Assembly (NCBI GenBank): GCA_963771275.1 | Contig: CAVYSW010000009.1 | Span: 1-64,000 of the forward strand | Source of the DNA: an uncultured Gemmatimonadales bacterium | GTDB taxonomy: Bacteria; Gemmatimonadota; Gemmatimonadetes; Gemmatimonadales; GWC2-71-9 | Direction: 5' to 3' | DNA: 64,000 nucleotides | In this document: positions 10,628 to 43,686 of the stretch, piece by piece | How the letters are laid out: each line of letters opens with the position of its first letter | Numbering within the stretch: the stretch's first letter is position 1 | Made by a program: the position numbers and the translations under genes | Notes under the pieces: model-generated | What the model was told of the DNA's origin: nothing | The model's database searches: none | The model's input: only the letters and a program-made list of their open reading frames with translations

Positions 10628-10701
10628 CGGGACGTAGCGCAGCCCGGTAGCGCACCTGAATGGGGTTCAGGGGGTCGCGGGTTCGAATCCCGCCGTCCCG
10701 A
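10628..10701 (+). tRNA. tRNA-Pro(GGG), CCA not encoded
   Basis: Acceptor stem CGGGACG/CGTCCCG, anticodon arm CCTGA-ATGGGGT-TCAGG, T-arm GCGGG-TTCGAAT-CCCGC. Confidence 0.97.
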
Positions 10702-10918: not shown

Positions 10919-11131
10919 CTAGGCGGCCACCTCCACGTAGGTCACGTAGCTCGTGGGCTCCGGGACCGGAAACCCCTCGGCGCGCAGCCCCTCCAGGTGA
11001 AACACGATGGCGTCACGCATCTTGCGCTCCACCAGCTCGCGGTCCGAGCCCGTCGTGACGCAGCCGGGGACGTCCGGCGAATACGCCGAGAACCCCGTCT
11101 GCGTCTGTTCCACGATGACCAGGACCCTCAT
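10919..11131 (-). CDS. hicB: HicB-family antitoxin
   Basis: FSAYSPDVPGCVTTG...MRDAIVFHLEGLRAEGFPVPEP. Confidence 0.9.
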   Translation of the reverse strand: MRVLVIVEQTQTGFSAYSPDVPGCVTTGSDRELVERKMRDAIVFHLEGLRAEGFPVPEPTSYVTYVEVAA

Positions 11132-11173
11132 GGCTCGAGCCCCGCCTGCGTGACGCCCGGGGTGACCGGCCAT
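11128..11173 (-). pseudogene. hicA: hicA toxin remnant
   Basis: AGHPG followed, in a shifted frame, by TQAGLEP-stop overlapping the hicB start (ATGA). Confidence 0.55.
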
Positions 11174-11188
11174 GACATCACAGCAGCA

Positions 11189-18514: not shown

Positions 18515-18907
18515 TCACACCAGCTCGATCTCCGCCCCGTGCCCCGGCGCCCCGGCCAGCCGGGCATCCGCCGTCAGCAGCGGCGCGCGCAACGCCTCCG
18601 CCAGGGCCACGTACGCCGCGTCGTACGCGGTGAGGTTGGACCGCAGCTCCCAGATCCTGGCGAGCAGCGGCGCGTGCGGATACCGCACCAGGGGGAATGC
18701 CGCGAGCAGCTCGATCGCCTCTTGGCCGCGTTCGGCCCCCAGCTCGCCGCGCGCCGCGTAGCGCCGCAACGCCTGCGCCACCTCGACATCCAGCAGCGCC
18801 GGCGCGCACAGCCGCTCGCCGGCGCCGGCCAGCCGCGCTTGCAGCCGCTCCGCCCCCGGCACCCGCAAGAGCACCTCCACCACGACCGACGCGTCCACGA
18901 CGATCAC
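18515..18907 (-). CDS. vapC: VapC PIN-domain toxin
   Basis: [10 protein letters not shown]...EV...LTAYDAAYVALAE...LLTADARL. Confidence 0.92.
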   Translation of the reverse strand: MIVVDASVVVEVLLRVPGAERLQARLAGAGERLCAPALLDVEVAQALRRYAARGELGAERGQEAIELLAAFPLVRYPHAPLLARIWELRSNLTAYDAAYVALAEALRAPLLTADARLAGAPGHGAEIELV

Positions 18908-19134
18908 CGGCGGTCACGCTCCCGCCGGATCAGCGCCGCCGGCGGTTCCTTGACCGTCACCGGCGCCATGCGCTGCAGGCGCTCGTAGACTTCGTCCATC
19001 GTCGGTTGCTCCGCGATCCGCCGCACCTCGCCCAGCAGGTACTCCGACAACGACTGGCCCGCCATCACGGCGCGCATTCTGAGCTTGCGGTGCAGCTCGT
19101 CGGGGACGTTGCGGATCTGAATCATCTTTGGCAT
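18904..19134 (-). CDS. FitA-like ribbon-helix-helix antitoxin
   Basis: [18 protein letters not shown]...SLSEYL; overlaps the vapC start. Confidence 0.88.
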
Positions 19135-19241
19135 GTGGCAAGCATGCGTGCATGTGCTGCACATGTCAAGCGGCACGCGCACACCCCGCACACTCCAGCC
19201 GGCGGCTGGCGCGCACGGGCTCTTTCTTCTTGGCTTTCCGC

Positions 19242-19262
19242 GATGAGTGGCATATACTCATC
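19242..19262. promoter_or_regulatory. Palindromic operator candidate for the second TA operon
   Basis: GATGAGT-N7-ACTCATC directly before the ATG at 19266. Confidence 0.55.
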
Positions 19263-27888: not shown

Positions 27889-30800
27889 TCAGTTGCCGAA
27901 GCGCGCGCGCCAGAAGCCGGCGACCGTCGCGACGCTCCCCTCGGTGATGCGGGCGCCGAGCGTGACGAAGGCGCCGTGCCCGCCGCGGACGGCGAAGTCC
28001 GGGTCGCGCAAGTCGCCGAACCGGTAGCCCGCCGCCACCTCGAGCACGTCGATCAGCCCGACCGCGAGCGACGGCGCGACATCCCACCGCGCGGAGCTGC
28101 TGGTACGCTCGATCAGCAGGCGGCCCTCGGAGCGGAACGTGAGGAACGCGTTGAGCCGCAGCTCGGCCCGGGCGCCGGCGTAATCGGCCCGGGACTCGAG
28201 CCGCTGCAGCGTGCTGTCTTCGTGCTGCCGGTCGGCGGCCGTGCGCCGGATGGCGTAGCGGCCGGCCAGCTCCACCCGGCGGGTCGGCGTCCAGATCAGC
28301 TCCGCCGCGCCAATCAGGCGCTGCTCCTGGCCGAGACTGGTGAGCACGCCCCGATCGAGCGGATTGGTCTCGTCGAGCCACGAGAACTTCGTGAGCACGT
28401 GCACCGCGTCGCTTCGGATCGGGCGGAACGCGACGCCCCAGAGTGACGCCACGCGCCGGCTGTTGCGGCTGCCGGTCGCGAGCGCCTGCTCGGTGCGCAG
28501 CAGCTCCTGGCGGGACAGGATGGCGAGCGAGCGGTTGATCGACACGTCGCCGGCCAGGGTCACCAGCCGCGTGGACAGCCGGTCGCCGTCGCGGTACTCG
28601 CCCCGCCCGGTCACGCGATAGGGCGCGCCCGCCGGCAGCAGCTCGACGCCGCCACTCACCGACCAGTAGTCCTCCTCGTCCTGCAGGAACGGCAGGGCCC
28701 GCACCGGATCACCCGGGTCGGCGCCGCTCACGCCGAAGCGGCGCTCGAACATCGTGTTGACGGTCCAGGCCGACCCGAGCCGGAGCCGGTTGTTGAGGCC
28801 GATCACGGCGGCGTTGTAGCGCGCGCCCGCGCCACCGGCGAGCTGGTACGAGCCCCACGCCTGCGTGCCGAAGCCCAGCTCCGACCGGACGCCGATGTTG
28901 GTGACGCCGTACGACTGGTCGTCGGGCAGCAGCGCGAAGCGGTGCCGCAGCTCGAGGCTCACGTTGTCGGTGAGCTTGAGGCCCGCGCCCGCGCCGATCT
29001 GGTTGGGGCGCACGAGGCTCTCGCTCGCGCCAAGCTGCTGGCGGCCTTCCGCCCACAGCCGGAGGCGCGGGAACGGCGTCCAGCTCAGCTTGCCCTCGAG
29101 CGCGTTGGATCGGTCGCCGTCGGCGCCGTTCTCGAAGCTGTCGAGCGCGTCGGTGGCCTCGACCTGGAAGTGCGCGCCGATCGGCTGCACGACGCCGAGG
29201 CTCGTGCGCCGCCGGCTCACGGCCTGGGACGCGGAGCTGAAGTACTCGTGCTGGGCGCGGAACGTCGTCCCCGTGGCGGCGAACCGGTAGCTGCCACCCG
29301 CCTTGAGCTCCGCGGTGCCGGCACGCAGCGCGATGTTGGACGGGTTGCCGAAGCCGTCGCCGATCTTCATCCAGGCGGCCGAGAGATGCAGCGCGCCCTG
29401 GAACAGATCGGCGGACCCGGTGAGCGACGTCGCGAGGCCGCTCGAGTCGGGCGCATGCGAGTAAGACAGCTCAGCCCCCAGGTCCAGCGCCTTCGTCTTC
29501 AGGAGCCGTACGTCGACGCCGGTCAGGTTGAACGCGCCGGTCGGCTCGTCGGCGTGAATCGCGCTCACGCCCAGCCGCAGCGAGTCGAGCCCACCCAGGC
29601 CGGACCGGGGCAGCGCGCTCACCGACGCGCGCAGCCCGCCCACCAGGCGACTGGCGCCGCCGCCCCGCCCCTCGTACGTCACCACGAGGAAGACGGGGTT
29701 CTCGTTCTCGTCGGCCGCCGGGACGGGGCGCTTGAACAGCAGCGTGCCGGTCTCGTAGTCGATCTGGTAGTCGACGAACCGCACCAGCCCCTGGCGCGTG
29801 ACGACGCGCTGCGGATTCTCGCGATCGCGCGTCTCGACCACGATCTGCTCGCTGGTCGGGATCGCGGCGCCACCGAGCGCGTACGGCCCCGAGACGCCGG
29901 CGCCGCGGATCTGCTCCTGCCGCAGGCTCTGGCTGGTGAGGCTCGCGAACCCGCGCCACGCGACCGGACCCGTGGTGATCTGCGCCATGCCGCCGGACAG
30001 CGCCCGGCGGTAGGCGGCGAGGCTCAGGCCCTGCGCGAACTCGGCGGTGGCCACGTCGCCCACCGTGAGCCAGTCGAAGCCGCGCTCCACGCGGGCCGAC
30101 ACCGCGTAGCGCGACGCGCTGAGCGTGCGCACCGCGCTCGCGTCCCCGAGGATCGGGTATTGCGCCTCGTCGAGCGGATCGTAGTCGCGCCCGAAGTTCT
30201 CGCGGCCGGCGTTGAGCCGCCGCGAGTCGACACTCAGCACCACCGACGTGCGCGCGTCGAGCCGGCCCCGGGCGGTGAGCGCGCCGTAGGCGTCGGGCGC
30301 CGCGCCGACGCCGACCCGCCCAACCGCGGTCACCATGAGGGGACGCGCCGCGGGCAGGGTCTCGAGCGGGCGCTCGTACATCGCGTCACCCGTCCGGAGC
30401 GTGAGCCGGCCCCGCGTCACCACGAACCCCGGCTTCACGTCGACGGTGAGCCAGCCGAGGGAATCGCTCTGGAGCTGGAGGCCGACCGACGAGGGATCGC
30501 TGTCGCCGCCCGACACGTCGGCCCCGTCCACCGTGACGGTGACGTCGGTCGGCGTCACGACCGGCACGCCCCACCGGTCGAGCAGCCGCACCCGGACCGG
30601 CGCGACCGTCTGGCCGTCGGCGGTAAGCTGCAGCGCGCCCGTCGGTCCCACGAGTGTCGCCGGAAGGCCGCTCACGTGCACCGCGATGCTGTCCCAGCGC
30701 TCCTGGTTCCAGGTGTTCCGCAGGGCGACCCGCAGGCGGTGCGGTCCCGGCGTGAGTGGGACGGCGATGAAGTCGTGGATCCCGTCCACCCGGACATCAC

Positions 30801-33800
30801 CACGAGCGAGCACCGTGTCACCGTCGTACAGCGTGACCGGCTGGCCCGGCTCGCCCCGCACGCCAATGAAGACGCGGTCGCGCGCCGTCACCGTCCCGTC
30901 GGTCAGGCCGAAGATCCGCACCGCCGGCCCCATGAGGAACGCGTTGCGCGCGTCCGCATCCCGCTCCGCGTCGGTGCGCAGGGTCGGCACCACGACCGGC
31001 TCGGCCACGACCCGCGCCGCGACCGGCGCCAGGGCAAGTGTGACGGGGCCCGGCGCGTCGCTGGCCTCGCGCGCGACGCCGGTGGCGGGGGTGAGCGAGT
31101 CCACGACCGCGGTCGCGATCCGCCCGGCGCTCTGCCCCGCGATCTCCAACGTCGCGTATGCGGAGTCCGCCGATCCGGTGGTCCAGGCGGTGAGGGCGAG
31201 CCGGGTTCCCGGCGCGAGCGCGGGCAGATCGAGCGGTCCATCCACGGTGGGCACCGGCGCCTCACCCATCACCAGCCGCACGGAATCCACCGGGGCCCCG
31301 AACCGCACGGCCAGGCCCTCGAGCGGGCGATCGCCCGGGTTCGCGATGGTGACCGTGTACTCGGTCACGGGCGGCGCGGGCGGAGGCGCCTCGGCAGGGA
31401 GCACCGTCGCCACACCCCGCACGAACGTGGCGGTCGTGCTCCGGCTCGCGCCCGGCACGAGGCGCATCTCCACCCGACGATTCCGTGCCCGGCCTTGCCG
31501 CGTGGCATTCGAGACGGCGGGCCGGTCCGGCCCGTAGGCCAGCACGGTCAGGCGCGCCGCGTCCACGCCCTGCGACACGAGGTAGTCGGTCACCGTCGTG
31601 GCCCGCTCGAGCGAGAGCCGCAGGTTCAGACTGCGCGGTCCTTCGGAGCTGGTGTGACCCGCGATCTCGACCCGGATCTCCGGACTCGCGTTGAGTAGCG
31701 CGGCGAGCTCGTCGAGGACAGGACGGGAGGCGGCGGTGAGCCGCGACTGGGCCAGCTCGAACGTGACCGGCAGGACCCAGATCGGCACGGCGGGGACGGC
31801 GGCGGTCACCGAGTCCGGCTGGCCCGCCACGGCGGGCTCCGCCGGGGGCTGGGGAACCGTGTCGGCGGCCGCGGCGACGGTGCGCGCCCCGAAGCTCCAC
31901 GTCAGCGGCACCCGCGCGCGCTCCACGCGCGCCGCGCGCGGTACGAGCCGGAACTGCACGATGGGAGTGGTCCAGCCGCCGGCGTCGCGCGTCACGATCT
32001 GGTCGGACGACGCGATGCGGTAGTCCGCCGGCACCGTCGCCGGATCCAGCCGAAAGGCGTGACCGCCGGCCCGGACGTTCTGGAACGAGAACTTGCCGTC
32101 GGCGTCGGTCGTCGCCACTTCGCCATCGTCGGTCCAGACGTCGAGGCCGGCCACGCCCGGCTCGTCGCCGCTCTGCACGCCGTCGCCGTTCCGGTCGAGC
32201 CACGCCTTGCCGATTACGGCCCGGGTCTCGAGCGGCCAGCTGCTGCGCAGGCGGACCCACGCCACCTGCATCGGCGCCGTGACGCCGCCGCCTTCGGCGG
32301 TCGCGTACGCGCGGTTCTCGATCACCTGCTGCTCCGCCGACACGATGGCCACCTGGTAGCGCACCGTGTGGCTGGCGCCGGGGGCGAGCGGCCCGCTCCA
32401 GAAGAACGTGAGCACCCGGCCGTCCACGTGCACCGAGTCCGCGCCCAGCGCGCTCCCCGTGGCGTACCGGCCGCCCTCGGGCAGCGAGTCCACGACGCGG
32501 AGATCGCCGAGCGGGTTGTCGCCGGTGTTCTGGAGCACCAGCGTGTAGGGCACGGTCTCGCCGAGCCCGACCTCGAGCACGTCGGCCGACTTCTGGAGTC
32601 CGAGCTGGTTGGGCAGCAGCCCTACCAGCACGACCGGGGCGGAGAGCGCGGCCGCGGGCGGCGCGTTGGCGGCCGCGACCACCGCGACGTTGCGCACCGT
32701 CACCGTGTCGCGGACCTGGTCGGAGACGCGCACCGTGAGCGCGACGCTCACGGAGTCGCCGGGCGCGACGTCGCCCATCGTCCAGGAGAGGACGCCGCCG
32801 CTCACGGTAGCGGCCGGTGCGGCGGACACGAAGTCGAGGCCGGGCGGCAGCGTGTCGACCAGCGTGACAGCGCGCGCCGGCATCGTGGGCGAGCGGTTCG
32901 CCGCGACGAGCGCGTAGAGCACCTGCTCGCCGATGCGCGCCGTCACGGGGCCCAGCAGGGTGTTCGCGAGGCCGAGCTGCGCGTGCACCACCGTGGTCAC
33001 GGCGGTGTTGGACGTCACCGAGTCGGCGCCGGCGAGCGTGCCGTAGACGGCCCCTGCGCGGTTGGCGATCGGCGTCTGGTCGGCGAGCCCGTTGGCGATC
33101 CGGACCTGGAAGGCGAGGGTGCCGCGCTGCCCACTCGGCAGGTCGCCGAGCGCGAACACCACGCGGTTGCCGGCCGGATCGAACCAGGCGGCGTCGTCCC
33201 CGACCGCATCGGTCAGCGCGGTGCCGCCCCACGTCAGCGACCCCGCGATGTAGGTGGCGCCCGGCGGGATCGGATCGCTGACGACCAGACTCGTTGCCGG
33301 GTTCGTCCCGCTCACGTCGCAGGTGAGCGTGTAGCTCAGCACGTCGCCCGTGGTCGCGGTGGTGCGATCCACCAGCTTGGCGAGCGTCACGAGCACACCC
33401 GCGTCCGGGACCTGCAGCACGTCGAGCACCGCGTCGGCGGCGCCGTCGAACTCGCTCACCGCCGTCACCGTCACCGTGTCGGTCGTCCCGCGGACGGTCG
33501 GGGATCCCGGCACATCCACGGCGGCGAGCACGGACGCGACCGCGCCGGCCGCGAGCGTGAGCCCCTGGATCGCGGGATCCGAGGCGTCGAGCACGCCGTC
33601 GTCGTTGAGGTCGCGGTACAGGGTCACCGCCCAGCCGGTTCGCGACACGGCCGCGAGGCGCAGGCTATCGGTCCCGTTGCCGACGTTCGTGACGGTGTGG
33701 GCGAAGACGACACGGCTGCCGGGGTTGGCCGTCGCGGCGCGCGGCGGCGCCAGGTCGACGCCACCCACCTGGGCCACGGTCACCACCAGCACGTTGGAGC

Positions 33801-33987
33801 GCGCGGTGAAGGTGAGTCCGTTCTCGGCCACGTAGGTAGCGTCGGCGACGTTGGAGATCTGGGTGCCCGCGGGCGTCGGGCCCTGGGCGAGCAGGTCGGT
33901 GCCGATCAGGCACAGCACGAGCGCGGCCCCGAACAACGCCATCCCGGGCCGCGACGCGCTCTGCTGGTTTCGGTGTGACCTGCTCAT
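27889..33987 (-). CDS. Large outer-membrane protein: DUF11 repeats, SdrD B-like, OmpA-like, Ig-like and C-terminal beta-strand-rich region
   Basis: Signal peptide; three DUF11 units; WLDRNGDGVQSGDEPG; IAGHTSSEG...NLRLSLERA...NRRVE; long amphipathic-strand C-terminus ending FWRARFGN. Confidence 0.85.
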   Translation of the reverse strand: MSRSHRNQQSASRPGMALFGAALVLCLIGTDLLAQGPTPAGTQISNVADATYVAENGLTFTARSNVLVVTVAQVGGVDLAPPRAATANPGSRVVFAHTVTNVGNGTDSLRLAAVSRTGWAVTLYRDLNDDGVLDASDPAIQGLTLAAGAVASVLAAVDVPGSPTVRGTTDTVTVTAVSEFDGAADAVLDVLQVPDAGVLVTLAKLVDRTTATTGDVLSYTLTCDVSGTNPATSLVVSDPIPPGATYIAGSLTWGGTALTDAVGDDAAWFDPAGNRVVFALGDLPSGQRGTLAFQVRIANGLADQTPIANRAGAVYGTLAGADSVTSNTAVTTVVHAQLGLANTLLGPVTARIGEQVLYALVAANRSPTMPARAVTLVDTLPPGLDFVSAAPAATVSGGVLSWTMGDVAPGDSVSVALTVRVSDQVRDTVTVRNVAVVAAANAPPAAALSAPVVLVGLLPNQLGLQKSADVLEVGLGETVPYTLVLQNTGDNPLGDLRVVDSLPEGGRYATGSALGADSVHVDGRVLTFFWSGPLAPGASHTVRYQVAIVSAEQQVIENRAYATAEGGGVTAPMQVAWVRLRSSWPLETRAVIGKAWLDRNGDGVQSGDEPGVAGLDVWTDDGEVATTDADGKFSFQNVRAGGHAFRLDPATVPADYRIASSDQIVTRDAGGWTTPIVQFRLVPRAARVERARVPLTWSFGARTVAAAADTVPQPPAEPAVAGQPDSVTAAVPAVPIWVLPVTFELAQSRLTAASRPVLDELAALLNASPEIRVEIAGHTSSEGPRSLNLRLSLERATTVTDYLVSQGVDAARLTVLAYGPDRPAVSNATRQGRARNRRVEMRLVPGASRSTTATFVRGVATVLPAEAPPPAPPVTEYTVTIANPGDRPLEGLAVRFGAPVDSVRLVMGEAPVPTVDGPLDLPALAPGTRLALTAWTTGSADSAYATLEIAGQSAGRIATAVVDSLTPATGVAREASDAPGPVTLALAPVAARVVAEPVVVPTLRTDAERDADARNAFLMGPAVRIFGLTDGTVTARDRVFIGVRGEPGQPVTLYDGDTVLARGDVRVDGIHDFIAVPLTPGPHRLRVALRNTWNQERWDSIAVHVSGLPATLVGPTGALQLTADGQTVAPVRVRLLDRWGVPVVTPTDVTVTVDGADVSGGDSDPSSVGLQLQSDSLGWLTVDVKPGFVVTRGRLTLRTGDAMYERPLETLPAARPLMVTAVGRVGVGAAPDAYGALTARGRLDARTSVVLSVDSRRLNAGRENFGRDYDPLDEAQYPILGDASAVRTLSASRYAVSARVERGFDWLTVGDVATAEFAQGLSLAAYRRALSGGMAQITTGPVAWRGFASLTSQSLRQEQIRGAGVSGPYALGGAAIPTSEQIVVETRDRENPQRVVTRQGLVRFVDYQIDYETGTLLFKRPVPAADENENPVFLVVTYEGRGGGASRLVGGLRASVSALPRSGLGGLDSLRLGVSAIHADEPTGAFNLTGVDVRLLKTKALDLGAELSYSHAPDSSGLATSLTGSADLFQGALHLSAAWMKIGDGFGNPSNIALRAGTAELKAGGSYRFAATGTTFRAQHEYFSSASQAVSRRRTSLGVVQPIGAHFQVEATDALDSFENGADGDRSNALEGKLSWTPFPRLRLWAEGRQQLGASESLVRPNQIGAGAGLKLTDNVSLELRHRFALLPDDQSYGVTNIGVRSELGFGTQAWGSYQLAGGAGARYNAAVIGLNNRLRLGSAWTVNTMFERRFGVSGADPGDPVRALPFLQDEEDYWSVSGGVELLPAGAPYRVTGRGEYRDGDRLSTRLVTLAGDVSINRSLAILSRQELLRTEQALATGSRNSRRVASLWGVAFRPIRSDAVHVLTKFSWLDETNPLDRGVLTSLGQEQRLIGAAELIWTPTRRVELAGRYAIRRTAADRQHEDSTLQRLESRADYAGARAELRLNAFLTFRSEGRLLIERTSSSARWDVAPSLAVGLIDVLEVAAGYRFGDLRDPDFAVRGGHGAFVTLGARITEGSVATVAGFWRARFGN

Positions 33988-34019
33988 GGCATCCGCGCTC
34001 CAACGCACAGGCGTAAAGG

Positions 34020-34035
34020 GCACGCTACATGCCAG
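34020..34035 (-). promoter_or_regulatory. Sigma-54 (-24/-12) promoter
   Basis: CTGGCATGTAGCGTGC, GG-N10-GC, just upstream of ATG 33987. Confidence 0.75.
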
Positions 34036-34125
34036 CTCGTGCGCTCTGAGAAATCATCTAAAACGTTATTGATAAACGACTTAGAAACTGACGATTGGGC
34101 TACAACTCGTCCGTCACGGCCGGGG

Positions 34126-34152
34126 GTTACCATTGGTAACCGGCCTGGTAAC
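34126..34152. promoter_or_regulatory. Putative enhancer (bEBP binding site), copy 1
   Basis: GTTAC-CATTG-GTAAC-CGGCCTG-GTAAC. Confidence 0.7.
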
Positions 34153-34291
34153 GACGCTCGTGCCAGGCACTTGGGGGATCCGGTGCGGGGCGGGAGAAAA
34201 GACCGAGGCGGCCGCCTCCGACCCTTGAGATCGGAGAGCGACCGCCCGGAAGGGAGTCGAGCTGGAGGCCGCCCTCAGGCGGCGGCGCGGT

Positions 34292-35536
34292 CTAGTTCAC
34301 CCGGGCCTGGATCCAGAAGAACCGGGTCGCGCCGGCGCCGAGCGCCACTGTGAGATCGGCATCGACGTCGTTGCCGCTGTTGGCCAGCGTCCACCCGGCC
34401 GAGCCATCGTTGGCCAGCGCGAGGAACGTCAGCTCCGCCGGCAACAGATCGTCCACGTGCACGCTGGTGGCGTTCTGGTCGCCGGCGTTGGTCACGCTCA
34501 CCCGGTACCAGATCACCTCCTGCGGGACGACGCGGTCGGTCGGCCCGATCACGGTGACCTGATCGCTGCGATACACCTGCTTGGCGATGGTCACGCGCGG
34601 GCGGATCACCGTGAGGTCCACGTAGCCGTTGTCGAGCGTGGCCGGCTGCGTCACCGACCGCGCCACCAGGTAGAGCGTGTCCCGTGACCCAACCGCGACC
34701 TCGGCGACCGTGTAGGTCACGTCGATGGACACCGACCCGCCGGTGGGGATCGTCACCCGCGTGCTGTCCGGCGGACCGGCCACGCCATTCACCGTCAGGA
34801 TGCCGATCACGACCGACCCCGGACTCGACGCGAGCAGATCGAACGCCTCGGCGGCGTTGCCGGTATTGTTCACGGTGAACGTCTCGGTGTAGGCCGATGC
34901 CCCGCTCGGCAAGCGCTGGCGATTGACGCCACCGTCCGGCGTCACGGCCACCCCGTAGGCCGCGGGCGGCGAGATGTTCGTGGTCGCGGCATCGCTCATC
35001 GTGCCGTCACGCTGCGATGTCGCCGTCAGCGTGTAGCCGGTGGTCTGGCCCCCCTGGCCGGCGTTCACGTCGTAGATCACCGTGACGGTGAGCGATCCCG
35101 TGATGCCCGCCAGCGACTGCGTGAGCAGCGCCGTGTTCAGCGCCGCCACGCTCGCGTAGACGGTCCCCACGCCGTTGATCTGGTATCCGGTCACGGTGAT
35201 CACCGCGCCGTTCGAGATCGTCTCGCCGACCTGCACCGTGTCGGTGCCGTTCCCGATGTTGGCCACCGTGAACGTGATCGATTGGCCCGACGAGGGCGAC
35301 GCGGGCGTGACCGACGCCACCCCCGTCACGTCGAGACCGGCCTGGAAGCCCACCGTGACCGACACCGAGGCGCTGTCGGGCGCATACAGCCGTCCCGTCG
35401 CATCGCGGTAGTTCACGATCGCCTTGTTGGTGATGACGGTTCCCTCAGGCGTTTGCGCCCGGGCCGGGACGGTCACCATGGCCACGGCGACTGCCGCCAA
35501 CGCCACGGCGCGCATCATCCAATTCGAGTTTCTCAT
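34292..35536 (-). CDS. Secreted DUF11 protein, putative major fibre subunit
   Basis: GGAGG RBS, signal peptide, N-terminal QTPEGTVITNKAIVNY, Ig-like repeats, terminal DUF11 ending FWIQARVN. Confidence 0.85.
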   Translation of the reverse strand: MRNSNWMMRAVALAAVAVAMVTVPARAQTPEGTVITNKAIVNYRDATGRLYAPDSASVSVTVGFQAGLDVTGVASVTPASPSSGQSITFTVANIGNGTDTVQVGETISNGAVITVTGYQINGVGTVYASVAALNTALLTQSLAGITGSLTVTVIYDVNAGQGGQTTGYTLTATSQRDGTMSDAATTNISPPAAYGVAVTPDGGVNRQRLPSGASAYTETFTVNNTGNAAEAFDLLASSPGSVVIGILTVNGVAGPPDSTRVTIPTGGSVSIDVTYTVAEVAVGSRDTLYLVARSVTQPATLDNGYVDLTVIRPRVTIAKQVYRSDQVTVIGPTDRVVPQEVIWYRVSVTNAGDQNATSVHVDDLLPAELTFLALANDGSAGWTLANSGNDVDADLTVALGAGATRFFWIQARVN

Positions 35537-35586
35537 GTTCGCCTCCACTCTCCCCCCTCAGGTGTTTACCGTTGCTGCGTAGCGCT

Positions 35587-36123
35587 TCACCGACTGGCCG
35601 CGCTGGTATCCGGCCGCGGCTCCGCCCCAGGCAGCCGCGCCCGGAACTCGGCCGTCACCTGGGCGCCGGGCTGCACCCAGCCCTGCACGGTCCAGCGGAC
35701 ATGCGTGTAGCGTTGCACCGGGGCCGGCCGCTGCTGCGGCTTCCCGTCCACCATTACCTCGATCATCGGTTGGGCGGAGAATGTGGCTCCGCCGTCGATG
35801 GAGTACTCGATCAGCGTGTCGTCGCGATCCGTTTTCGCCGACGCGATGACGTAGCGCAGGCCGGACGGGATCGGGTCTTTCAGCTCGATGCTGCGCACTG
35901 GTGTGGCGTTCAGGTTGGTGAACACGAGCCGGTACTCCACGACATCGCCCGGCAACAGCGCGTTCGAATCGGCGAGTCCACGATGTCGCTCGTCGCCCGC
36001 CATGAGATTCACCGCGGTGATGACGAGCGCCTGCGGCTCGCGCTGTTGTGCCGCGACGCGCATCCCCGCCGCCGCCACGACCAGCCCCGCGACCAACCCC
36101 GCCTGCAGTAGTCTCGTGCTCAT
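35587..36123 (-). CDS. Small secreted single DUF11-like protein
   Basis: Signal peptide; LPGDVVEYRLVFTN, LKDPIPSG, YSIDGG, YTHVRW, AEFRARL. Confidence 0.85.
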   Translation of the reverse strand: MSTRLLQAGLVAGLVVAAAGMRVAAQQREPQALVITAVNLMAGDERHRGLADSNALLPGDVVEYRLVFTNLNATPVRSIELKDPIPSGLRYVIASAKTDRDDTLIEYSIDGGATFSAQPMIEVMVDGKPQQRPAPVQRYTHVRWTVQGWVQPGAQVTAEFRARLPGAEPRPDTSAASR

Positions 36124-36308
36124 GACTCGGTCTCCTCCGTGCTGCGTCGGCTGGTCCGGCCCCACTTGGCCTTGGCACGCTCCGGTGCGCCTTGCGCCTC
36201 CTGCCATGCGAACGGCACTTCGCACCCGTGGCAGATCACCCATTTGCCCGAGAAATCCCCTCGAGCGTAGTGCGTGCTCGTTCCGCAGTGTGGGCACCGC
36301 AACACCAT
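36120..36308 (-). CDS. Small zinc-ribbon protein (62 aa)
   Basis: MVLRCPHC...VICHGC; AGGAG RBS; ATGA overlap with the next gene. Confidence 0.65.
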   Translation of the reverse strand: MVLRCPHCGTSTHYARGDFSGKWVICHGCEVPFAWQEAQGAPERAKAKWGRTSRRSTEETES

Positions 36309-36346
36309 GTGCGACTCCTGTCGTCCAGCTGTTCGGCCGCTAGGGA

Positions 36347-36362
36347 AGCACGGGCCATGCCG
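36347..36362 (-). promoter_or_regulatory. Sigma-54 (-24/-12) promoter
   Basis: CGGCATGGCCCGTGCT, GG-N10-GC. Confidence 0.7.
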
Positions 36363-36459
36363 GGTGGCGAGCATCGACCAATATCGTCGTAAGGTATTGT
36401 CATAAATCGTCTTACAGAGATGCCAACCAGGCAGACTGTCTGTCGCTGCGGGATGTCTG

Positions 36460-36486
36460 GTTACCGAAGGTAACGGCCGGGGTAAC
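36460..36486. promoter_or_regulatory. Putative enhancer, copy 2
   Basis: GTTAC-CGAAG-GTAAC-GGCCGGG-GTAAC. Confidence 0.7.
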
Positions 36487-36517
36487 GCGAGATCGGAACC
36501 GGGCTGGTCGAAGGGGA

Positions 36518-38818
36518 CTACTTGATCCGGGCCACGTACTGGAACGTGCACGTGTTGTTGGGGGCCACCGCGCTCAGGTCGTTGAGCAGCATCCAGCGGA
36601 TCCGGTTGACGCACCCATCGTAGCCCGCCAGGGCCCCGCAGCCGAGCGACGCGGGGGTGTAGGTCCACGTCGCGCCGGCGTCGTTGGAGTACGCGACGGC
36701 GGTACTCACACCGGGCGGCAGCGTGTTCACCACCGATCCGACCTTGAACGTCACCTGCCCGGCGATCGAGTCCACCACGGTGACCGCCACGGCATCGATC
36801 GTCCCGGTGTTGACCGCGTCGATCAGATAGGTGAGATCGGTTCCCGGCGCGACGGCCCCACTGGGATTCGCGCTGCGGCTGATCGTCACTTTCGGTCCGC
36901 CGGAAATCGTGACGTCCTCACCCGTGCTCGATGCCGGAGCGTATGCGGCGCTGGTGGTGCCCGCGGCCGTGGTGCGCGCCGGATCGAGGTAGATGGCCCG
37001 CGCCGGATTCTGATAGGTGCCATTCGGCGTGGCGGCGGCGATGTTGGCGGTGAACGTGAGGCGCACGCTGCCGCCACCCGGGATGGAGAATGTGCCCCAG
37101 GTTGGGATGGCCGCCCCGACGGCAGGGTTCGTCGTGCTGGGCCGGGAGGCGCCCCCGCTGAAGACCGGCGCCGCGGTGGACGCGTAGGTGAACCCGGTCG
37201 GGAGCGTGTCGGTGATGGTGAGCGTCCGCGCCGTGTCGCGACCCGCGGCGTTCGCCACCACGACGGTATAGGTCGCCGTGGTCCCGGAGGGGGAATAGGT
37301 CACGGACGGCGTCGACGTGGTCTTCGTGACCGTGAGTGCCGGGACGCACGCGGCGCCGGCCGACGTGCCCGGAATCTGATTCGCCGTCAAGGTCGCGACG
37401 GAGGATCCGGACGCGCCGGCGGTGGCGTTGAACAGATTCCCGGGCGAAACCGTGTATCCCGGAGCACCCCCCGCGACGTCGACGGATGCCGCGCCGGAGA
37501 GCGCGACGAACCCGCCACCACCACCAGCACCGGGACCATGCGGGACCCCTCCGATGTGGGCGTTCCCGCCATCGCCGCCCCGCGCCTGGACACTGAGGCC
37601 GGCGAGCCCGCCGCTGGCGGCATACACGACGACGCTGCCGCCGGCGCCCCCGCCGCCGCCGCCGTCATTCGCGGGCGTGTTCCCCACCTGTCCATTGGCG
37701 CTGATCGCGCCGACGCCGGTCACGCTCCCGGCGCGGATCATCACGATGCCACCACCCGCGCCACCCGAGCTGGCCGTGCCCGAGGAGTTGTTGCGGGTGC
37801 CCGCTCCACCACCGCCCCCCAACACGATCAGGCTAGCGGCGGCGGGGACGCTCGCGCCCCCGCGTCCCCCCACCGCGAGATTCGAGTTCCAGGAGTTGCC
37901 GCCGCGGCCCCCCGCACCCGCATTCCCACCGCCGCCACCGCCGGAGTTCTCGTCGTTGGCGGAGGGACGTCCGTCGGTGCCACCACCCCCCGCGTTTCCC
38001 GGCGCGCCCCGCGCCGTGCTGCCGTTGGGGTATCCCTCCGTGCCGTTGTTGATCAGCGCCGCCGTCACGGGATCGACCACGTAGCGCGGCATGCCCGCGA
38101 TGCCCTCGCCCTTCGACCCGTGGAAGTTGTACGTGGCGAGGTTCCGGTAGTCGGTATTGGAACCGCCAGACCCTCCCGTGAGCCCCCGGCCGCCACCGCC
38201 GCGAAATCCCTTGGCGTCGACGCTCACCGTGCCACCGAGCGTCAACGTCCCGGCGACATCGATCGCGAGAATGCCGCCGGTGGCCCCATTCCAACCCGAC
38301 GCCGTGAGGCCGGAGCTGAGCGACGCGCTGGAGTACTGCGGGACGCGGACCACCTGATAGCGCCGCTGGCCCTGCGATCCCGTGGCCGCCGCGTTGGTGT
38401 AGGAGTAGTTCAGACCGTTCCCTGTCCCGGTTCCCCGGAAGGTGACGGTGCCGCCCGCGAGGCCGACGGTACTGGTCGCCGTCACGTACTCGTACCGGCC
38501 CGCGTTGTTGAGGCTGGTCGCCCCCGCACCGGACCCGTTGTTGGCCCCGTACGCGCTCGAGTTGGTGGAGTTGATCGCCGCGTCCTGCATCTGGATGATC
38601 AGCAGCAAATCGCCCGGCGTGATCCCCACGCTCGCCCCCGTCGCGGACCCGACCACGAGCGACGTGGCGCCCGCGGCGAGATTGGCGGTGGAGCCGGGGA
38701 AGTACGTGTTGACGATGCCGCTGAGCACGCCACCGGGACCGTCCTTGCCCGGGATGCCGCAGACCTGGGCTCCCGCCGGTGTGAGGGGCACGGACGCGAG
38801 CAGCAACGCCACCGTCAC
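36518..38818 (-). CDS. Secreted glycine-rich DUF11 protein, putative tip adhesin (start uncertain)
   Basis: Signal-like N-terminus, GDLLLIIQMQ domain, many poly-Gly runs, two DUF11 units, ends FQYVARIK. Confidence 0.85.
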   Translation of the reverse strand: MTVALLLASVPLTPAGAQVCGIPGKDGPGGVLSGIVNTYFPGSTANLAAGATSLVVGSATGASVGITPGDLLLIIQMQDAAINSTNSSAYGANNGSGAGATSLNNAGRYEYVTATSTVGLAGGTVTFRGTGTGNGLNYSYTNAAATGSQGQRRYQVVRVPQYSSASLSSGLTASGWNGATGGILAIDVAGTLTLGGTVSVDAKGFRGGGGRGLTGGSGGSNTDYRNLATYNFHGSKGEGIAGMPRYVVDPVTAALINNGTEGYPNGSTARGAPGNAGGGGTDGRPSANDENSGGGGGGNAGAGGRGGNSWNSNLAVGGRGGASVPAAASLIVLGGGGGAGTRNNSSGTASSGGAGGGIVMIRAGSVTGVGAISANGQVGNTPANDGGGGGGAGGSVVVYAASGGLAGLSVQARGGDGGNAHIGGVPHGPGAGGGGGFVALSGAASVDVAGGAPGYTVSPGNLFNATAGASGSSVATLTANQIPGTSAGAACVPALTVTKTTSTPSVTYSPSGTTATYTVVVANAAGRDTARTLTITDTLPTGFTYASTAAPVFSGGASRPSTTNPAVGAAIPTWGTFSIPGGGSVRLTFTANIAAATPNGTYQNPARAIYLDPARTTAAGTTSAAYAPASSTGEDVTISGGPKVTISRSANPSGAVAPGTDLTYLIDAVNTGTIDAVAVTVVDSIAGQVTFKVGSVVNTLPPGVSTAVAYSNDAGATWTYTPASLGCGALAGYDGCVNRIRWMLLNDLSAVAPNNTCTFQYVARIK

Positions 38819-38923
38819 CTCGGCACTCAGGCGGGAGCGTCGAGGGGCCGTGACGGCGCGGACGGCACACGACCGCCAGCTCCGTTTCGCAGCTCGACGT
38901 CGCTAGTCATCCACGGGCGAGTG

Positions 38924-38939
38924 AGCAGGACATGTGCCA
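38924..38939 (-). promoter_or_regulatory. Sigma-54 (-24/-12) promoter
   Basis: TGGCACATGTCCTGCT, near-consensus TGGCAC-N5-YTGC. Confidence 0.8.
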
Positions 38940-39024
38940 TGCCGCAGCACATGATAAGCTCATGCAATTCGGGCGGTTACGTGAAGTATCGCCATCCCGA
39001 CCGGCGGTACGCGATTCCTGCCCT

Positions 39025-39052
39025 GTTACCGTCACGTAACCGCGGCGGTAAC
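39025..39052. promoter_or_regulatory. Putative enhancer, copy 3
   Basis: GTTAC-CGTCAC-GTAAC-CGCGGCG-GTAAC. Confidence 0.65.
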
Positions 39053-39084
39053 GGTGGGGCGGCCTGGTGAGCAGCCAGCGCCGG

Positions 39085-40455
<1,371 letters not shown>

Positions 40456-40527
40456 GAGCGCAATACTTGTGCGACAGGCCAGCAATTACAAGGGCTTACG
40501 TGCCCGGGACCCCGGAGCGGGGCGGCG

Positions 40528-40911
40528 ATGGCACCTTCCGTTCGCGTGGTCGTGATCGACGATGATCGCGACCTCCGTCACCTGATCAAGCTCACCATGG
40601 AATTCACCGCCGGCTGGCAGGTCGATGTCGCCGGCGACGGGGAGGAAGGAATTGCCCTCACGCAGCGGGTCCGGCCTGATGTGGTAGTGGCAGATCTCAT
40701 GATGCCGGGGATGGATGGGTACGAGGTCTGCCGCCGCCTCCGGACGGACCCCGCCACCGCGGGAATCCCCGTCATCGTCCTGACGGCCCGCAAGAAAATT
40801 GACGCCGCGCGGCTGACGGAGGCCGGCGCGGCCGGCGTGCTGTTCAAGCCGTTCGAGCCCGACGAGCTCACGACCAGCATCCTGAAATTCATCCGTCCAC
40901 CCGATGCCTGA
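40528..40911 (+). CDS. Single-domain response regulator
   Basis: VVIDDD, DLMMPGMDG, VLTA, KPF. Confidence 0.92.
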   Translation: MAPSVRVVVIDDDRDLRHLIKLTMEFTAGWQVDVAGDGEEGIALTQRVRPDVVVADLMMPGMDGYEVCRRLRTDPATAGIPVIVLTARKKIDAARLTEAGAAGVLFKPFEPDELTTSILKFIRPPDA

Positions 40912-41269
40912 GCTACCAATCCCGGCTGATCGCGCGGCCGCACGGCAGGCCCTGGACCGGGAGTTTGCCGCCGGTCTGAGCGAGCGGACCGCGGTGCTCC
41001 GGGCCGCGCTCGCGGCGTGCGCGGACGTGTTCGCGGCGGCCGAGGTCGAGGCACTCTACTACCGCGCACACGCCCTGAAGGGCACGGCGGCGGCGTATGG
41101 GGCCGATGAGCTGGTGGAGCCGGCGGCCCGCCTCGCCGGCATCGGACGCGGCTGGCTGGAGCGGCGGGCCACCGTCGCCAGTGAGCGCGCCGCGGCCGTT
41201 GCGGCACTCGGCGACCTGGAAGCCGCCGTGGCCAGCTACCGCACCCGGATCGGCGCCACCACCCTGTGA
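40904..41269 (+). CDS. Hpt phosphotransfer protein
   Basis: AHALKGTAAAYG. Confidence 0.88.
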   Translation: MPELPIPADRAAARQALDREFAAGLSERTAVLRAALAACADVFAAAEVEALYYRAHALKGTAAAYGADELVEPAARLAGIGRGWLERRATVASERAAAVAALGDLEAAVASYRTRIGATTL

Positions 41270-43686
41270 CCACACCGCCGCCGCGCGCCGACCGGGCCGC
41301 CGAGCGCCTCGAGATCGTGGGCGAGCTGGCCTCGCTGATCAACACGACGTTCGACCTCCACGAGATCTTCCGGTCGGCAATCGTCAAGCTCCGGCGCGTC
41401 CTCCCGTTCCGGCGCGCGAGCGTCACCCTCCTCTCGGACGACGGCGACCACTACCAGCTCCACACGCTGTATGACGGCGCGCGGGGCGGTTTCCAGGACG
41501 CCGAGCAGCGCTTCCCGCTCGACTACGGCCTGCCGGGGCAGGTGATCCGCTCGGGCGAGGCGATGCGCGTGGACGCGTTCGGCGGGACCGAGGGGATTCG
41601 CCAACCGGGCGAGGGCACGATCTCGGCGCTCATCCTGCCGTTGCGGGTCGACGGAGCGGTGATCGGCTCGCTCAATCTGGGGGCGGAGGAGTCGCTGCGG
41701 TACGGGGACGAAGATCTGGAGCTGGCGCGGCTGTTGGGCCGACAGATCGAGACGTCGCTGCATTACTCGAAGCTGCTGTCCACCATCGAGCGGCAGCGCG
41801 TGGATCTCTCGGCCGAGCATGCACGGGTGCAATTACAGCAGGTCCGGCTCGAGGCGCTGGTCGAGGCCGGGGGCTCCGCGATCATGATGGTCGATGGCGG
41901 GAGGGTGGTGCACGCCAATCGCGCGATGGCCGGGCTGCTGGGCCTGCCCCTCGAGGTCGTCCGCAGCGCCCCGCTCGATCACGTGCACCGGGCGCTGGCA
42001 CGTTCGCTCCGGGACCGGGCAGCCCTCGACGCCCAGGTAGCGGCGATCCAGCCCGGCGGCGAGCCGCTGCGGGATCAAGTCGATCTAGTGTTCCCGCGCC
42101 CGCGCACATTCCGCCGCACCGTCGATCCGGTCGTGAGCCGGTACGGTGAGCCGATGGGGCACCTCGTGGTGTACCGGGACGTCACCCGCGCGGCCGCCGC
42201 CGAGGCCGCGAAGGACGAGTTCGTCTCGATGGTGAGCCACGAGCTGCGGACCCCGCTGACGTCGATCAAGACCTCGCTCAGCCTGCTCACTCGCGGGGCG
42301 GCCGGCCACGTGACAGAGGCGATGGCGGAGTTCATCGCCATCGCGCTCCGCAACCTCGAGCGACTGATCACGCTCGTGGACGATCTGCTCGACCTCTCGC
42401 GGATCGAGAGCGGGCGCCTCGTGACGCACGTGGTGCCGACCTGCGTCGGCGACGTGGCCGCCCACGCCATCGAGATGGTGCGCGCGTTCGCCGACGACCA
42501 GGGCGTCATCCTGGAGTGCGACGTGCACGCGCCGTGCCGGCCCGTCCTGGTCGACCCGGCGCGTCTGGAACAGGTCTTCGTCAATCTGCTGTCGAATGCC
42601 ATCAAGTTCTCGCCGCAGCGAGGGCGGGTGGCTCTGCGGTGGACGGAGGAAGCAGGTGCCCTCGTCACGGAGATCTCCGACGAGGGTCCGGGCATTCCCA
42701 AGGAGCAGCTGGGGGTCGTGTTCGACAAGTTCCGGCAACTCGAGCCGGCCGCGACCCGCGGGCACGGTGGCGTCGGACTTGGGCTCTACATCAGCCGTGC
42801 CATCCTCGCGCAACTCGGTGGCGACCTGTGGGCGGAGAGCGAGGGAGGGCGCGGAACACGATTCTATGTGAAGCTGCCGCTTGCGACCGAAGCGCCGTCG
42901 ACGGCCGCGCCCTCGCAGGACGTCCAGCCGGCGGCAGCGGCCGTGCGGCGCGCGCTCCTGGCGGTCCCGGATCCCGACTTCGCCCTGCTGGTCCGGACAC
43001 AGCTGGAACAGGATGGCATCAGCGTCGAGCTGACCTCCAGCGGCTGGGCTGCCCTCGGCGTGGTCGCGCGGGAACCGCCCGACGTGGTCGTCGCCCACGC
43101 CGAGTTGGAGGACATGCACGGGCTCGAGTTCATGCAGCGCCTCCGGTCCCGACCGGAGGCGGCGAACCTGCCGGCCATCCTGGTGGGCGGCGACCCGATG
43201 CCGGCGCAGGCCATTGCATACGGCGCCGACGCCTGGCTCGCCGCCGATCCCGCCAGCGTCGCGGCCGAGATTCGCCGATTGGGCACGACCCCCCGACGGC
43301 CCGTGATCCTGTTCGTCGAAGACGACCCCGCCGTCCGCGGCGCGCTCGCCCGACTGATCCGGCGGCAGGGGTACGCGGTGGTCGAGGCCACCCACGCGAC
43401 GTTGGGGCTGGAGCTGGCCCGGCGCCGGGTGCCGGACGCGGTCGTGGTCGATCACCACCTCCCGGGGATGTCCGGTCTCGACCTCTTGCGCGCGATGCGG
43501 GACGACCCCGCGTTGGCTGCGGTGCCGGGACTCGTGCTGAGCGGGCACGCCACGCCACAAATCGTGCGTGACGCAGCGGCGCTCGGCGCCGAGTTCCTCC
43601 CCAAGCCCATGGACTGGACGGTGATCGCGCAGGCCGTCGCGCGCCTCATTACGGACCCGAGCGCGCGCCCTCCGTTCGCCCGCTGA
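41266..43686 (+). CDS. Hybrid histidine kinase GAF-PAS-HisKA-HATPase-REC-REC
   Basis: SHELRTPLT, NLLSNAIKFS, DEGPGI, GVGLGL, two receiver-like domains; no TM helix seen. Confidence 0.93.
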   Translation: MTTPPPRADRAAERLEIVGELASLINTTFDLHEIFRSAIVKLRRVLPFRRASVTLLSDDGDHYQLHTLYDGARGGFQDAEQRFPLDYGLPGQVIRSGEAMRVDAFGGTEGIRQPGEGTISALILPLRVDGAVIGSLNLGAEESLRYGDEDLELARLLGRQIETSLHYSKLLSTIERQRVDLSAEHARVQLQQVRLEALVEAGGSAIMMVDGGRVVHANRAMAGLLGLPLEVVRSAPLDHVHRALARSLRDRAALDAQVAAIQPGGEPLRDQVDLVFPRPRTFRRTVDPVVSRYGEPMGHLVVYRDVTRAAAAEAAKDEFVSMVSHELRTPLTSIKTSLSLLTRGAAGHVTEAMAEFIAIALRNLERLITLVDDLLDLSRIESGRLVTHVVPTCVGDVAAHAIEMVRAFADDQGVILECDVHAPCRPVLVDPARLEQVFVNLLSNAIKFSPQRGRVALRWTEEAGALVTEISDEGPGIPKEQLGVVFDKFRQLEPAATRGHGGVGLGLYISRAILAQLGGDLWAESEGGRGTRFYVKLPLATEAPSTAAPSQDVQPAAAAVRRALLAVPDPDFALLVRTQLEQDGISVELTSSGWAALGVVAREPPDVVVAHAELEDMHGLEFMQRLRSRPEAANLPAILVGGDPMPAQAIAYGADAWLAADPASVAAEIRRLGTTPRRPVILFVEDDPAVRGALARLIRRQGYAVVEATHATLGLELARRRVPDAVVVDHHLPGMSGLDLLRAMRDDPALAAVPGLVLSGHATPQIVRDAAALGAEFLPKPMDWTVIAQAVARLITDPSARPPFAR

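Follow-up and report, generated by a model that had tools for sequence, protein, structure and literature searches.

Introduction

The closest described counterparts of the regulatory system considered here are the NtrC-dependent glnAp2 promoter and the NifA-dependent nifH promoter, in which an activator with a Fis-type helix-turn-helix (HTH) binds inverted repeats about 80–120 bp upstream of a GG-N10-GC promoter. In these systems a site for the bending protein IHF lies in between, the helical phase of the sites matters, and a kinase feeds the response-regulator form of the activator. Here we describe a stretch of 64,000 nucleotides from an uncultured Gemmatimonadales bacterium (contig CAVYSW010000009.1; hereafter the window, meaning the whole stretch) in which three minus-strand intergenic regions have the same order of elements: an enhancer, an AT-rich 30-bp element and a sigma-54-type GG-N10-GC promoter. 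Judged by sequence comparison, these regions probably control, in cis, a conserved Gemmatimonadota gene cluster whose products are secreted, immunoglobulin-like (Ig-like) repeat proteins of the DUF11 type. The Gemmatimonadota are abundant in soil and genetically almost unstudied.

The locus resembles the NtrC/glnAp2 and NifA/nifH systems in its enhancer, its intervening element, its GG-N10-GC promoter, its phasing and its kinase–regulator pair. It differs from them in that the half-site is GTTACC and in that three half-sites, forming a direct plus an inverted repeat, take the place of the classic two full palindromes; the GAFTDA loop of the activator, the phylum and the surface-protein genes that would be the targets also set it apart. 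The NorR enhancer likewise has an odd number of recognition units, three, upstream of a sigma-54 promoter. However, those of NorR are three full dimer sites of another sequence, whereas the three half-sites described here lie within 28 bp. A kinase and an NtrC-type regulator also adjoin secreted or surface-protein genes in the PEP-CTERM PrsK/PrsR pair (TIGR02915), but the activator of the window scored 360 bits against that model, under the curated cut-off of 502.6, and so falls outside that family; neither a PEP-CTERM signal nor EpsH was detected. The available excerpt of a sigma-54 regulon reconstruction in Desulfovibrio vulgaris (PMC4641369) uses the same kind of inference, from an activator palindrome and a −24/−12 promoter kept in relatives, and includes a GAFTDA activator, DVU2106. 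That work deals with another phylum, another motif and other targets, and the present cluster and motif do not appear in the excerpt.

Our literature search found no published account of the motif or of the cluster. The architecture is that of a textbook enhancer-dependent promoter; the DNA motif is new. The analysis provides a precise and testable regulatory map of a highly conserved surface-protein cluster of Gemmatimonadota, from kinase and Hpt protein through activator and enhancer to the putative bending element and the promoter. It also gives an unnamed activator group a defined DNA motif, which could be used for regulon finding in genomes and for reporters. The general understanding of sigma-54 regulation is left unchanged.

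Three probable regulatory modules in the window

The cluster is encoded on the minus strand in the order activator, gene A, Zn-ribbon open reading frame (ORF), gene B, gene C and gene D. The elements of the three modules, named P3, P2 and P1, and a hairpin that precedes P1 are as follows.

39025..39052, minus strand: P3 enhancer (upstream activator sequence), upstream of gene A; GTTACC-N6-GTTAC-N6-GTAAC; begins 33 bp past the activator stop codon
38952..38981, minus strand: P3 middle 30-bp element, placed by Gibbs alignment; CGTAAC...CTTATCA; the weakest match among the window's three
38925..38939, minus strand: P3 sigma-54-type promoter; TGGCACATGTCCTGC, GG-N10-GC
36460..36486, minus strand: P2 enhancer, upstream of the Zn-ribbon ORF and gene B; GTTACC-N6-GTTACC-N3-GGTAAC
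36387..36416, minus strand: P2 middle element; TGTAAGACGATTTATGACAATACCTTACGA, which includes CAA-N4-TTA
36348..36361, minus strand: P2 sigma-54-type promoter; GGCATGGCCCGTGC, GG-N10-GC
34201..34218, minus strand: terminator-like hairpin with a T-run, between gene C and the P1 enhancer
34126..34152, minus strand: P1 enhancer, upstream of gene D; GTTACC-N6-GTTACC-N3-GGTAAC
34056..34085, minus strand: P1 middle element; TCTAAGTCGTTTATCAATAACGTTTTAGAT
34020..34034, minus strand: P1 sigma-54-type promoter; TGGCATGTAGCGTGC, GG-N10-GC

A preliminary description of this DNA had reported a GG-N10-GC element in each of these gaps, with a tripartite GTTAC/GTAAC motif 87–99 bp upstream. Both elements were confirmed at the reported positions of P1, P2 and P3 on the minus strand, and the distance from the end of the enhancer to the GG was 86 bp at P3, 98 bp at P2 and 92 bp at P1, in agreement with the earlier figure. 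The three promoters read TGGCAC-N5-CTGCT, GGCAT-N5-GTGCT and TGGCAT-N5-GTGCC, and they fit the extended sigma-54 consensus TGGCAC-N5-TTGCW. Start codons are located 33–106 nt past the GC of the promoters.

We compared the occurrence of these patterns in the window with that in 100 shuffled sequences. The palindrome GTTAC-N5/6-GTAAC was present three times versus 0.00 expected, and the exact tripartite pattern was present twice, again versus 0.00 expected. Half of the GTTAC/GTAAC pentamers in the 64 kb (10 of 20) fall within the three intergenic regions. Taken by itself, the promoter pattern GGCAY-N6-TGC did not exceed chance in the window (13 matches versus 7.55 expected, with 6 of the 100 shuffles reaching 13); its weight comes from its position and from its conservation in other species. 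A scan of positions 33800–41400 for sigma-70 promoters found none. The three regions were also aligned with one another, with the question of whether P1 is a copy of P2; only the functional motifs were common to them, and the comparison was uninformative.

Conservation of the modules in related loci

The comparison set consisted of 80 loci (1,130,278 bp) from species-level genomes that were kept from 122 relatives, all of them Gemmatimonadota metagenome-assembled genomes (MAGs). When the window proteins were searched against this set by tblastn, gene C had a match in all 80 loci, genes B and D in 77 each, gene A in 60, the activator in 41, the Zn-ribbon ORF in 39 and the kinase in 35. The gene order kinase, activator, A, Zn-ribbon, B, C, D was kept. 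Activator orthologues, defined by at least 55% identity over more than 300 residues, numbered 34.

Strict patterns were then counted by region. After the activator, upstream of A, the palindrome was found in 24 of 34 loci, the promoter in 24 of 34 and both in 20 of 34. The corresponding values were 32, 40 and 30 of 50 for the region between A and B, and 3, 8 and 2 of 77 for the region after C, upstream of D. Failure of a strict pattern often reflected a one-base variant in which the middle half-site is GTTCC. Across the entire 1,130,278 bp there were 66 exact palindromes, every one of them upstream of a homologue of a cluster gene (A, Zn/B or D). Fifty-nine of the 66 were inside the three region classes, which account for 4.8% of the bases; the remaining seven were upstream of Zn/B or A homologues or of an extra Zn-ribbon gene, each with a promoter-like element 90–114 bp downstream.

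A relaxed enhancer pattern, GTT[AC]C-N5/6-GTAAC, identified 75 sites in the loci, 72 of which had a sigma-54-like element 60–125 bp downstream on the same strand; the chance of such an element is about 0.01 per 65-bp stretch. A search that used no prior motif gave GGTAAC as the top enriched 6-mer of the intergenic regions (156 occurrences versus 7.9 expected). This pairing in orthologous loci, and the conservation of the layout in related species, bear out the earlier proposal that the three sites are sigma-54-type promoters sharing an upstream motif.

Several loci have other arrangements. Upstream of B, loci L012, L076, L021, L020 and L078 contain a sigma-54-like promoter and an AT-rich TAA...TTA-like element with no GTTAC enhancer, and no activator orthologue was detected in these five, some of which have short upstream flanks. 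L012 and L076 have a GGCAAATTGCTGCA-like stretch in common in place of the enhancer, possibly a site for a different activator. Neither enhancer nor sigma-54-like promoter was found upstream of B in L073, L075, L077, L070, L051, L035, L059, L065, L079 and L080; these ten loci include Longimicrobium/Longimicrobiaceae and Gemmatimonadaceae MAGs, and the intergenic gaps are short in most of them. In L034 and L048 the intergenic stretches that follow the activator and gene A carry a repeated gtcatcccgaggagcg...gggatctgc at the position of the enhancer in other loci, which looks like a small mobile element or a repetitive extragenic palindromic (REP)-like element.

Anatomy of the enhancer and promoter

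The 72 instances from the loci and the window's three were combined into a set of 75 instances, to which the counts in this section and the next refer. The enhancer consensus was GTTACC-N6-GTTACC-N4-GGTAAC, 69 instances having an N6 spacer within the palindrome and 6 an N5 spacer. In 66 instances there was a third half-site, G[TA]TAC, 12 bp upstream of the palindrome and always on the promoter-distal side; a promoter-proximal equivalent was present in one. GG-N10-GC was exact in all 75, with the consensus GGCAYG..nC.TGC.

The instances could be sorted by the gene that they precede. At the 24 A-class promoters the third half-site was mostly degenerate (GATACC in 11, ATTACC in 5, GTTACC in 4), and the −12 box was TTGC in 19. 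The 42 Zn/B-class promoters had GTTACC as third half-site in 31 cases and CTGC or GTGC as −12 box in 40, and the seven D-class promoters, P1 of the window included, had GTTACC in 5 and GTGC in 6. Two of the 75 instances fell outside the three classes, one of which precedes a second Zn-ribbon gene in L032. On sequence grounds these class differences would be compatible with tuned promoter strengths, but the idea in the preliminary description that separate transcripts allow stoichiometry control gained no support from them.

D-class promoters are restricted to a few lineages, in which they are preceded by a terminator-like hairpin (34218–34201 in the window and similar in relatives). Loci that do not have a D-class promoter have short C–D gaps lacking these elements. 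The A and Zn/B modules are ancestral in the clade, and the D module is a lineage-specific addition after the terminator-like hairpin. The preliminary description had pictured a separate transcript from each of the three promoters; this was not supported as a general arrangement, since only seven of the 75 instances are D-class promoters.

The middle element and helical phase

A Gibbs search of the spacers recovered a 30-bp element, ..TAAsy..T.....ACAA....TTAs, which scored 16.7 bits versus 6.4–6.9 bits in four shuffled controls. Two of its A residues were kept in 74–75 of the 75 instances, and one T was kept in all 75. The end of the enhancer was separated from this element by about 31 bp in 27 instances and by about 42 bp in 46, and the element was separated from the GG by about 43.5 bp in 48 instances and by about 54 bp in 26. 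Both spacings are quantised in steps of one helical turn, about 10.5–11 bp, which would be expected if all three parts must share one face of a DNA loop. These spacings are unusually clean natural evidence of a helical-phase constraint in enhancer-dependent promoters.

IHF recognises the consensus WATCAANNNNTTR, the core of which is CAA-N4-TTR. This core was in register in 32 of the 75 middle elements, and TAA was present 13 bp upstream of CAA in 60. Among the window's three sites, CAA-N4-TTA is found in P2 only. An IHF-like site is a plausible reading of the middle element. The IHF-like AT-rich stretch that had been pointed out at P1 does lie inside the conserved element (34085–34056), but the register assigned to it, TATCAATAACGTT, is about 4 bp off that of the 75 instances.

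The activator and signalling genes

The protein encoded at the head of the cluster is an NtrC-family activator, with Pfam matches to Response_reg (6.8e-26), Sigma54_activat (2.9e-66) and HTH_8 (2.9e-14); its nearest solved structures are the NtrC-family proteins 4l4u and 1ny5. The translation has the receiver-domain features of an acidic pocket and an Asp, as well as the Walker A sequence GESGTGK. Its C-terminal HTH segment, LGISRKNLWEKRKKYGL, hardly varies among the orthologues, in line with the invariant half-site. Variation within this segment (N or S in LGISRK[N/S]LW) had no clean co-variation with the GTTCC half-site. All scores against NCBIfam equivalogs (AtoC, NtrC, ZraR, the PEP-CTERM regulator and others) were under the cut-off, for example 423.5 versus 714 for AtoC, which places the activator in an unnamed orthologous group. 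Past the stop codon of the L004 activator there is a partial second copy of its HTH-coding end (L004 6068–6230).

Co-occurrence of the activator and the motif was counted in the 37 loci that have the full 10-kb upstream flank. Both were present in 24 loci and neither in 10, with the activator only in 2 and the motif only in 1 (Fisher p 1.9e-6, in a test that ignores shared ancestry). The two loci with the activator only, L006 and L048, have rearranged or variant enhancers. The Hpt ORF (32 loci) and the kinase (35 loci) accompany the activator. In the window the Hpt ORF overlaps the start of the hybrid kinase gene, whose product carries two receiver domains; this arrangement suggests a multi-step phosphorelay to the activator.

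Proposed mechanism and alternative explanations

In the mechanism that we favour, the Hpt protein and the hybrid histidine kinase, both encoded divergently, would phosphorylate the adjacent NtrC-type response regulator, and the Fis-type HTH of the regulator would bind the three-half-site enhancer G(T/A)TACC-N6-GTTACC-N4-GGTAAC. The 30-bp element, TAAsy-N11-ACAA-N4-TTAs, for which a bending protein of the IHF/HU type is the likeliest ligand, would loop the DNA, and the ATPase of the activator would contact the sigma-54 holoenzyme on the GG-N10-GC promoter. In this genome the three modules would drive gene A, the Zn-ribbon–B–C unit and gene D. The identities of the binding proteins, the transcription starts and the signal are those that we infer. 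The sequence analysis itself shows the elements, their non-random occurrence and conservation, their spacing and phasing, the domains of the activator, and the co-occurrence of activator and motif. In addition, the phylum possesses sigma-54: supplementary file 1 of PMC3162934 gives one rpoN and nine activators for Gemmatimonas aurantiaca T-27.

Several observations weigh against this mechanism. The sigma-54-contacting loop of the activator is GAFTDA rather than the consensus GAFTGA, and the same is true of 33 of the 34 orthologues. In this orthologous group, which keeps canonical −24/−12 promoters, GAFTDA appears to be fixed as a natural variant. The D. vulgaris study lists GAFTDA, as found in DVU2106, among the loop variants expected to stay active (PMC4641369), and the effect of the G-to-D loop change in VfmH of Dickeya is called unknown in PMC10714721. 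Only 32 of the 75 middle elements fit CAA-N4-TTR, and the position of the consensus T is mostly A. In some clades the sigma-54-like promoter upstream of B is found without the GTTAC enhancer. No rpoN or IHF/HU gene was present among the window ORFs scanned, the source genome not having been searched. The disregard of shared ancestry in the Fisher test belongs here as well, as does the finding that the motif tracks the Zn-ribbon ORF about as well as it tracks the activator, being present in 33 of the 36 loci with that ORF versus 10 of the 44 without it.

This last count speaks for an explanation in which the enhancer is real and is bound by another protein, either an activator encoded elsewhere or the Zn-ribbon protein, the first product of P2. 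Locus L008, which has the motif and no activator within 10 kb, points in the same direction, although gene A appears to be very long there and the activator may therefore lie beyond the flank. Nevertheless, the adjacent activator bears a Fis-type HTH, its HTH segment is near-invariant alongside the invariant half-site, and in 24 of 34 loci the exact palindrome follows the activator match at a distance of 16–78 bp, whereas the 62-residue Zn-ribbon protein matched no recognised DNA-binding family. We consider binding by such another protein unlikely. A doubtful but somewhat more credible alternative concerns the middle element, which might be a second, low-affinity activator site with everted GTAAC...GTTAC-like ends, or a site for some other regulator, instead of an IHF/HU site. 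The ends of the element do resemble half-sites, with TAAC on the left and TTAC on the right (GTAAC-N18-GTTAC in L015 and L018), and the limited fit to the CAA-N4-TTR core favours this possibility, as does the lack of an IHF gene among the window ORFs scanned. However, the element is asymmetric and has a conserved ACAA core inside, features that do not suit a palindromic activator site, its ends do not have the CC that is conserved in the enhancer half-sites, and a position between enhancer and promoter with helical phasing is classic for IHF sites.

It is also conceivable that the palindromes act as RNA hairpins, that is, as terminators of the upstream genes or as repeat elements, and not as protein-binding DNA. 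They are situated directly past stop codons, and the P3 copy folds at −24.4 kcal/mol (z = −2.5). In contrast, the P2 copy folds no better than shuffled sequences (z = −0.35), and a T-run is found in none of the copies. At nine sites the middle half-site is GTTCC and the GTAAC opposite it is uncompensated, which indicates that sequence and not pairing is conserved. Moreover, the third half-site is a direct repeat, and palindrome and promoter keep a fixed, phased spacing. On the basis of the P2 fold, the lack of T-runs and the uncompensated variants we rejected the hairpin or terminator reading, which we regard as highly improbable. We give little credence to a more elaborate scheme, in which the three half-sites, amounting to a palindrome and a half, would seed an asymmetric complex of the GAFTDA activator. 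In that scheme the near-invariant, phased 30-bp element would not be an IHF site but the target of the Zn-ribbon protein, which, as first product of P2, would exert feedback on a phylum-wide sigma-54 surface-fibre regulon.

Products of the cluster and other features of the window

The genes of the cluster and the signalling genes next to it are as follows.

39085..40455, minus strand: NtrC-family activator; receiver domain (REC; Response_reg), sigma-54 AAA+ domain (Sigma54_activat) and HTH_8
36518..38818, minus strand: gene A, 766 residues; Gly-rich AgmC_N-like N-terminus and DUF11-type C-terminal domains
36120..36308, minus strand: Zn-ribbon ORF, 62 residues with four cysteines; first gene 3′ of P2, its stop codon overlapping the gene B start
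35587..36123, minus strand: gene B, 178 residues; signal peptide and one DUF11 repeat
34292..35548, minus strand: gene C, DUF11 protein of 418 residues; four Ig-like domains in the model
27889..33987, minus strand: gene D, 2032 residues; DUF11 repeats, SdrD_B domain and OmpA-like peptidoglycan-binding domain
40904..41269, plus strand: Hpt-domain ORF, divergent to the activator gene; Pfam Hpt E 5.3e-05, slightly under the curated cut-off
41266..43686, plus strand: hybrid histidine kinase; GAF-PAS-HisKA-HATPase-REC-REC

The N-terminal 440 residues of gene A matched the AgmC N-terminal model (adventurous gliding motility) with an E value of 2e-36 and 125.8 bits versus a cut-off of 275. Gene A also had a sub-threshold match to an isopeptide domain (28 bits versus a cut-off of 30), the sole hint of a pilus-type subunit; domain scans of the window proteins detected no pilin-type, sortase, usher or type IV assembly family. 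A structural model of gene C, 30 homologues of which were aligned, had a mean predicted local distance difference test (pLDDT) score of 88 and consisted of four beta-sandwich domains. Its fold matches in the PDB were the Ig-like adhesin stalks of PrgB, the C123 region of antigen I/II and RTX adhesin repeats, at TM-scores of 0.2–0.37. These are generic multi-Ig matches at low TM-score and do not assign a role to gene C. Taken together, the gene C model and the OmpA-like peptidoglycan-binding domain of gene D support a predicted role at the cell envelope or surface. The suggestion of tip, shaft and base transcripts was not sustained: gene C is generically Ig-like, the scans revealed neither pilins nor sortase machinery, and an assembly order could not be inferred.

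Only weak family matches, to Lar-like and Zn_ribbon_5, were obtained for the Zn-ribbon ORF. Its homologues in related loci (39 tblastn matches) share MVLRCPxC...VVCPxC..F.W, and 36 of the 39 matches are ORFs of 55–77 residues with charged tails. Extra Zn-ribbon genes are located downstream of gene D in L032 (17986–18300), L025 (about 9935) and L028 (about 8875). The extra gene of L032 has its own complete enhancer, middle element and promoter, and those of L025 and L028 are fused into longer ORFs of 242–248 residues.

The window has a G+C content of 70%, and the homologues of its genes are from Gemmatimonadota. The sole match in an Rfam scan of the window was a tRNA, with tRNA-Pro at 10628–10701. 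Two direct GTTAC pentamers 29 bp apart (12846 and 12875, plus strand) are flanked by genes for a hybrid kinase and an AraC-type regulator; pattern scans found no palindrome or promoter-like element there. A gene for a PIN toxin and a gene for a FitA-like ribbon-helix-helix antitoxin are encoded on the minus strand at 18515–19257, and a HicB-like antitoxin ORF is located at 10919–11188, also on the minus strand.

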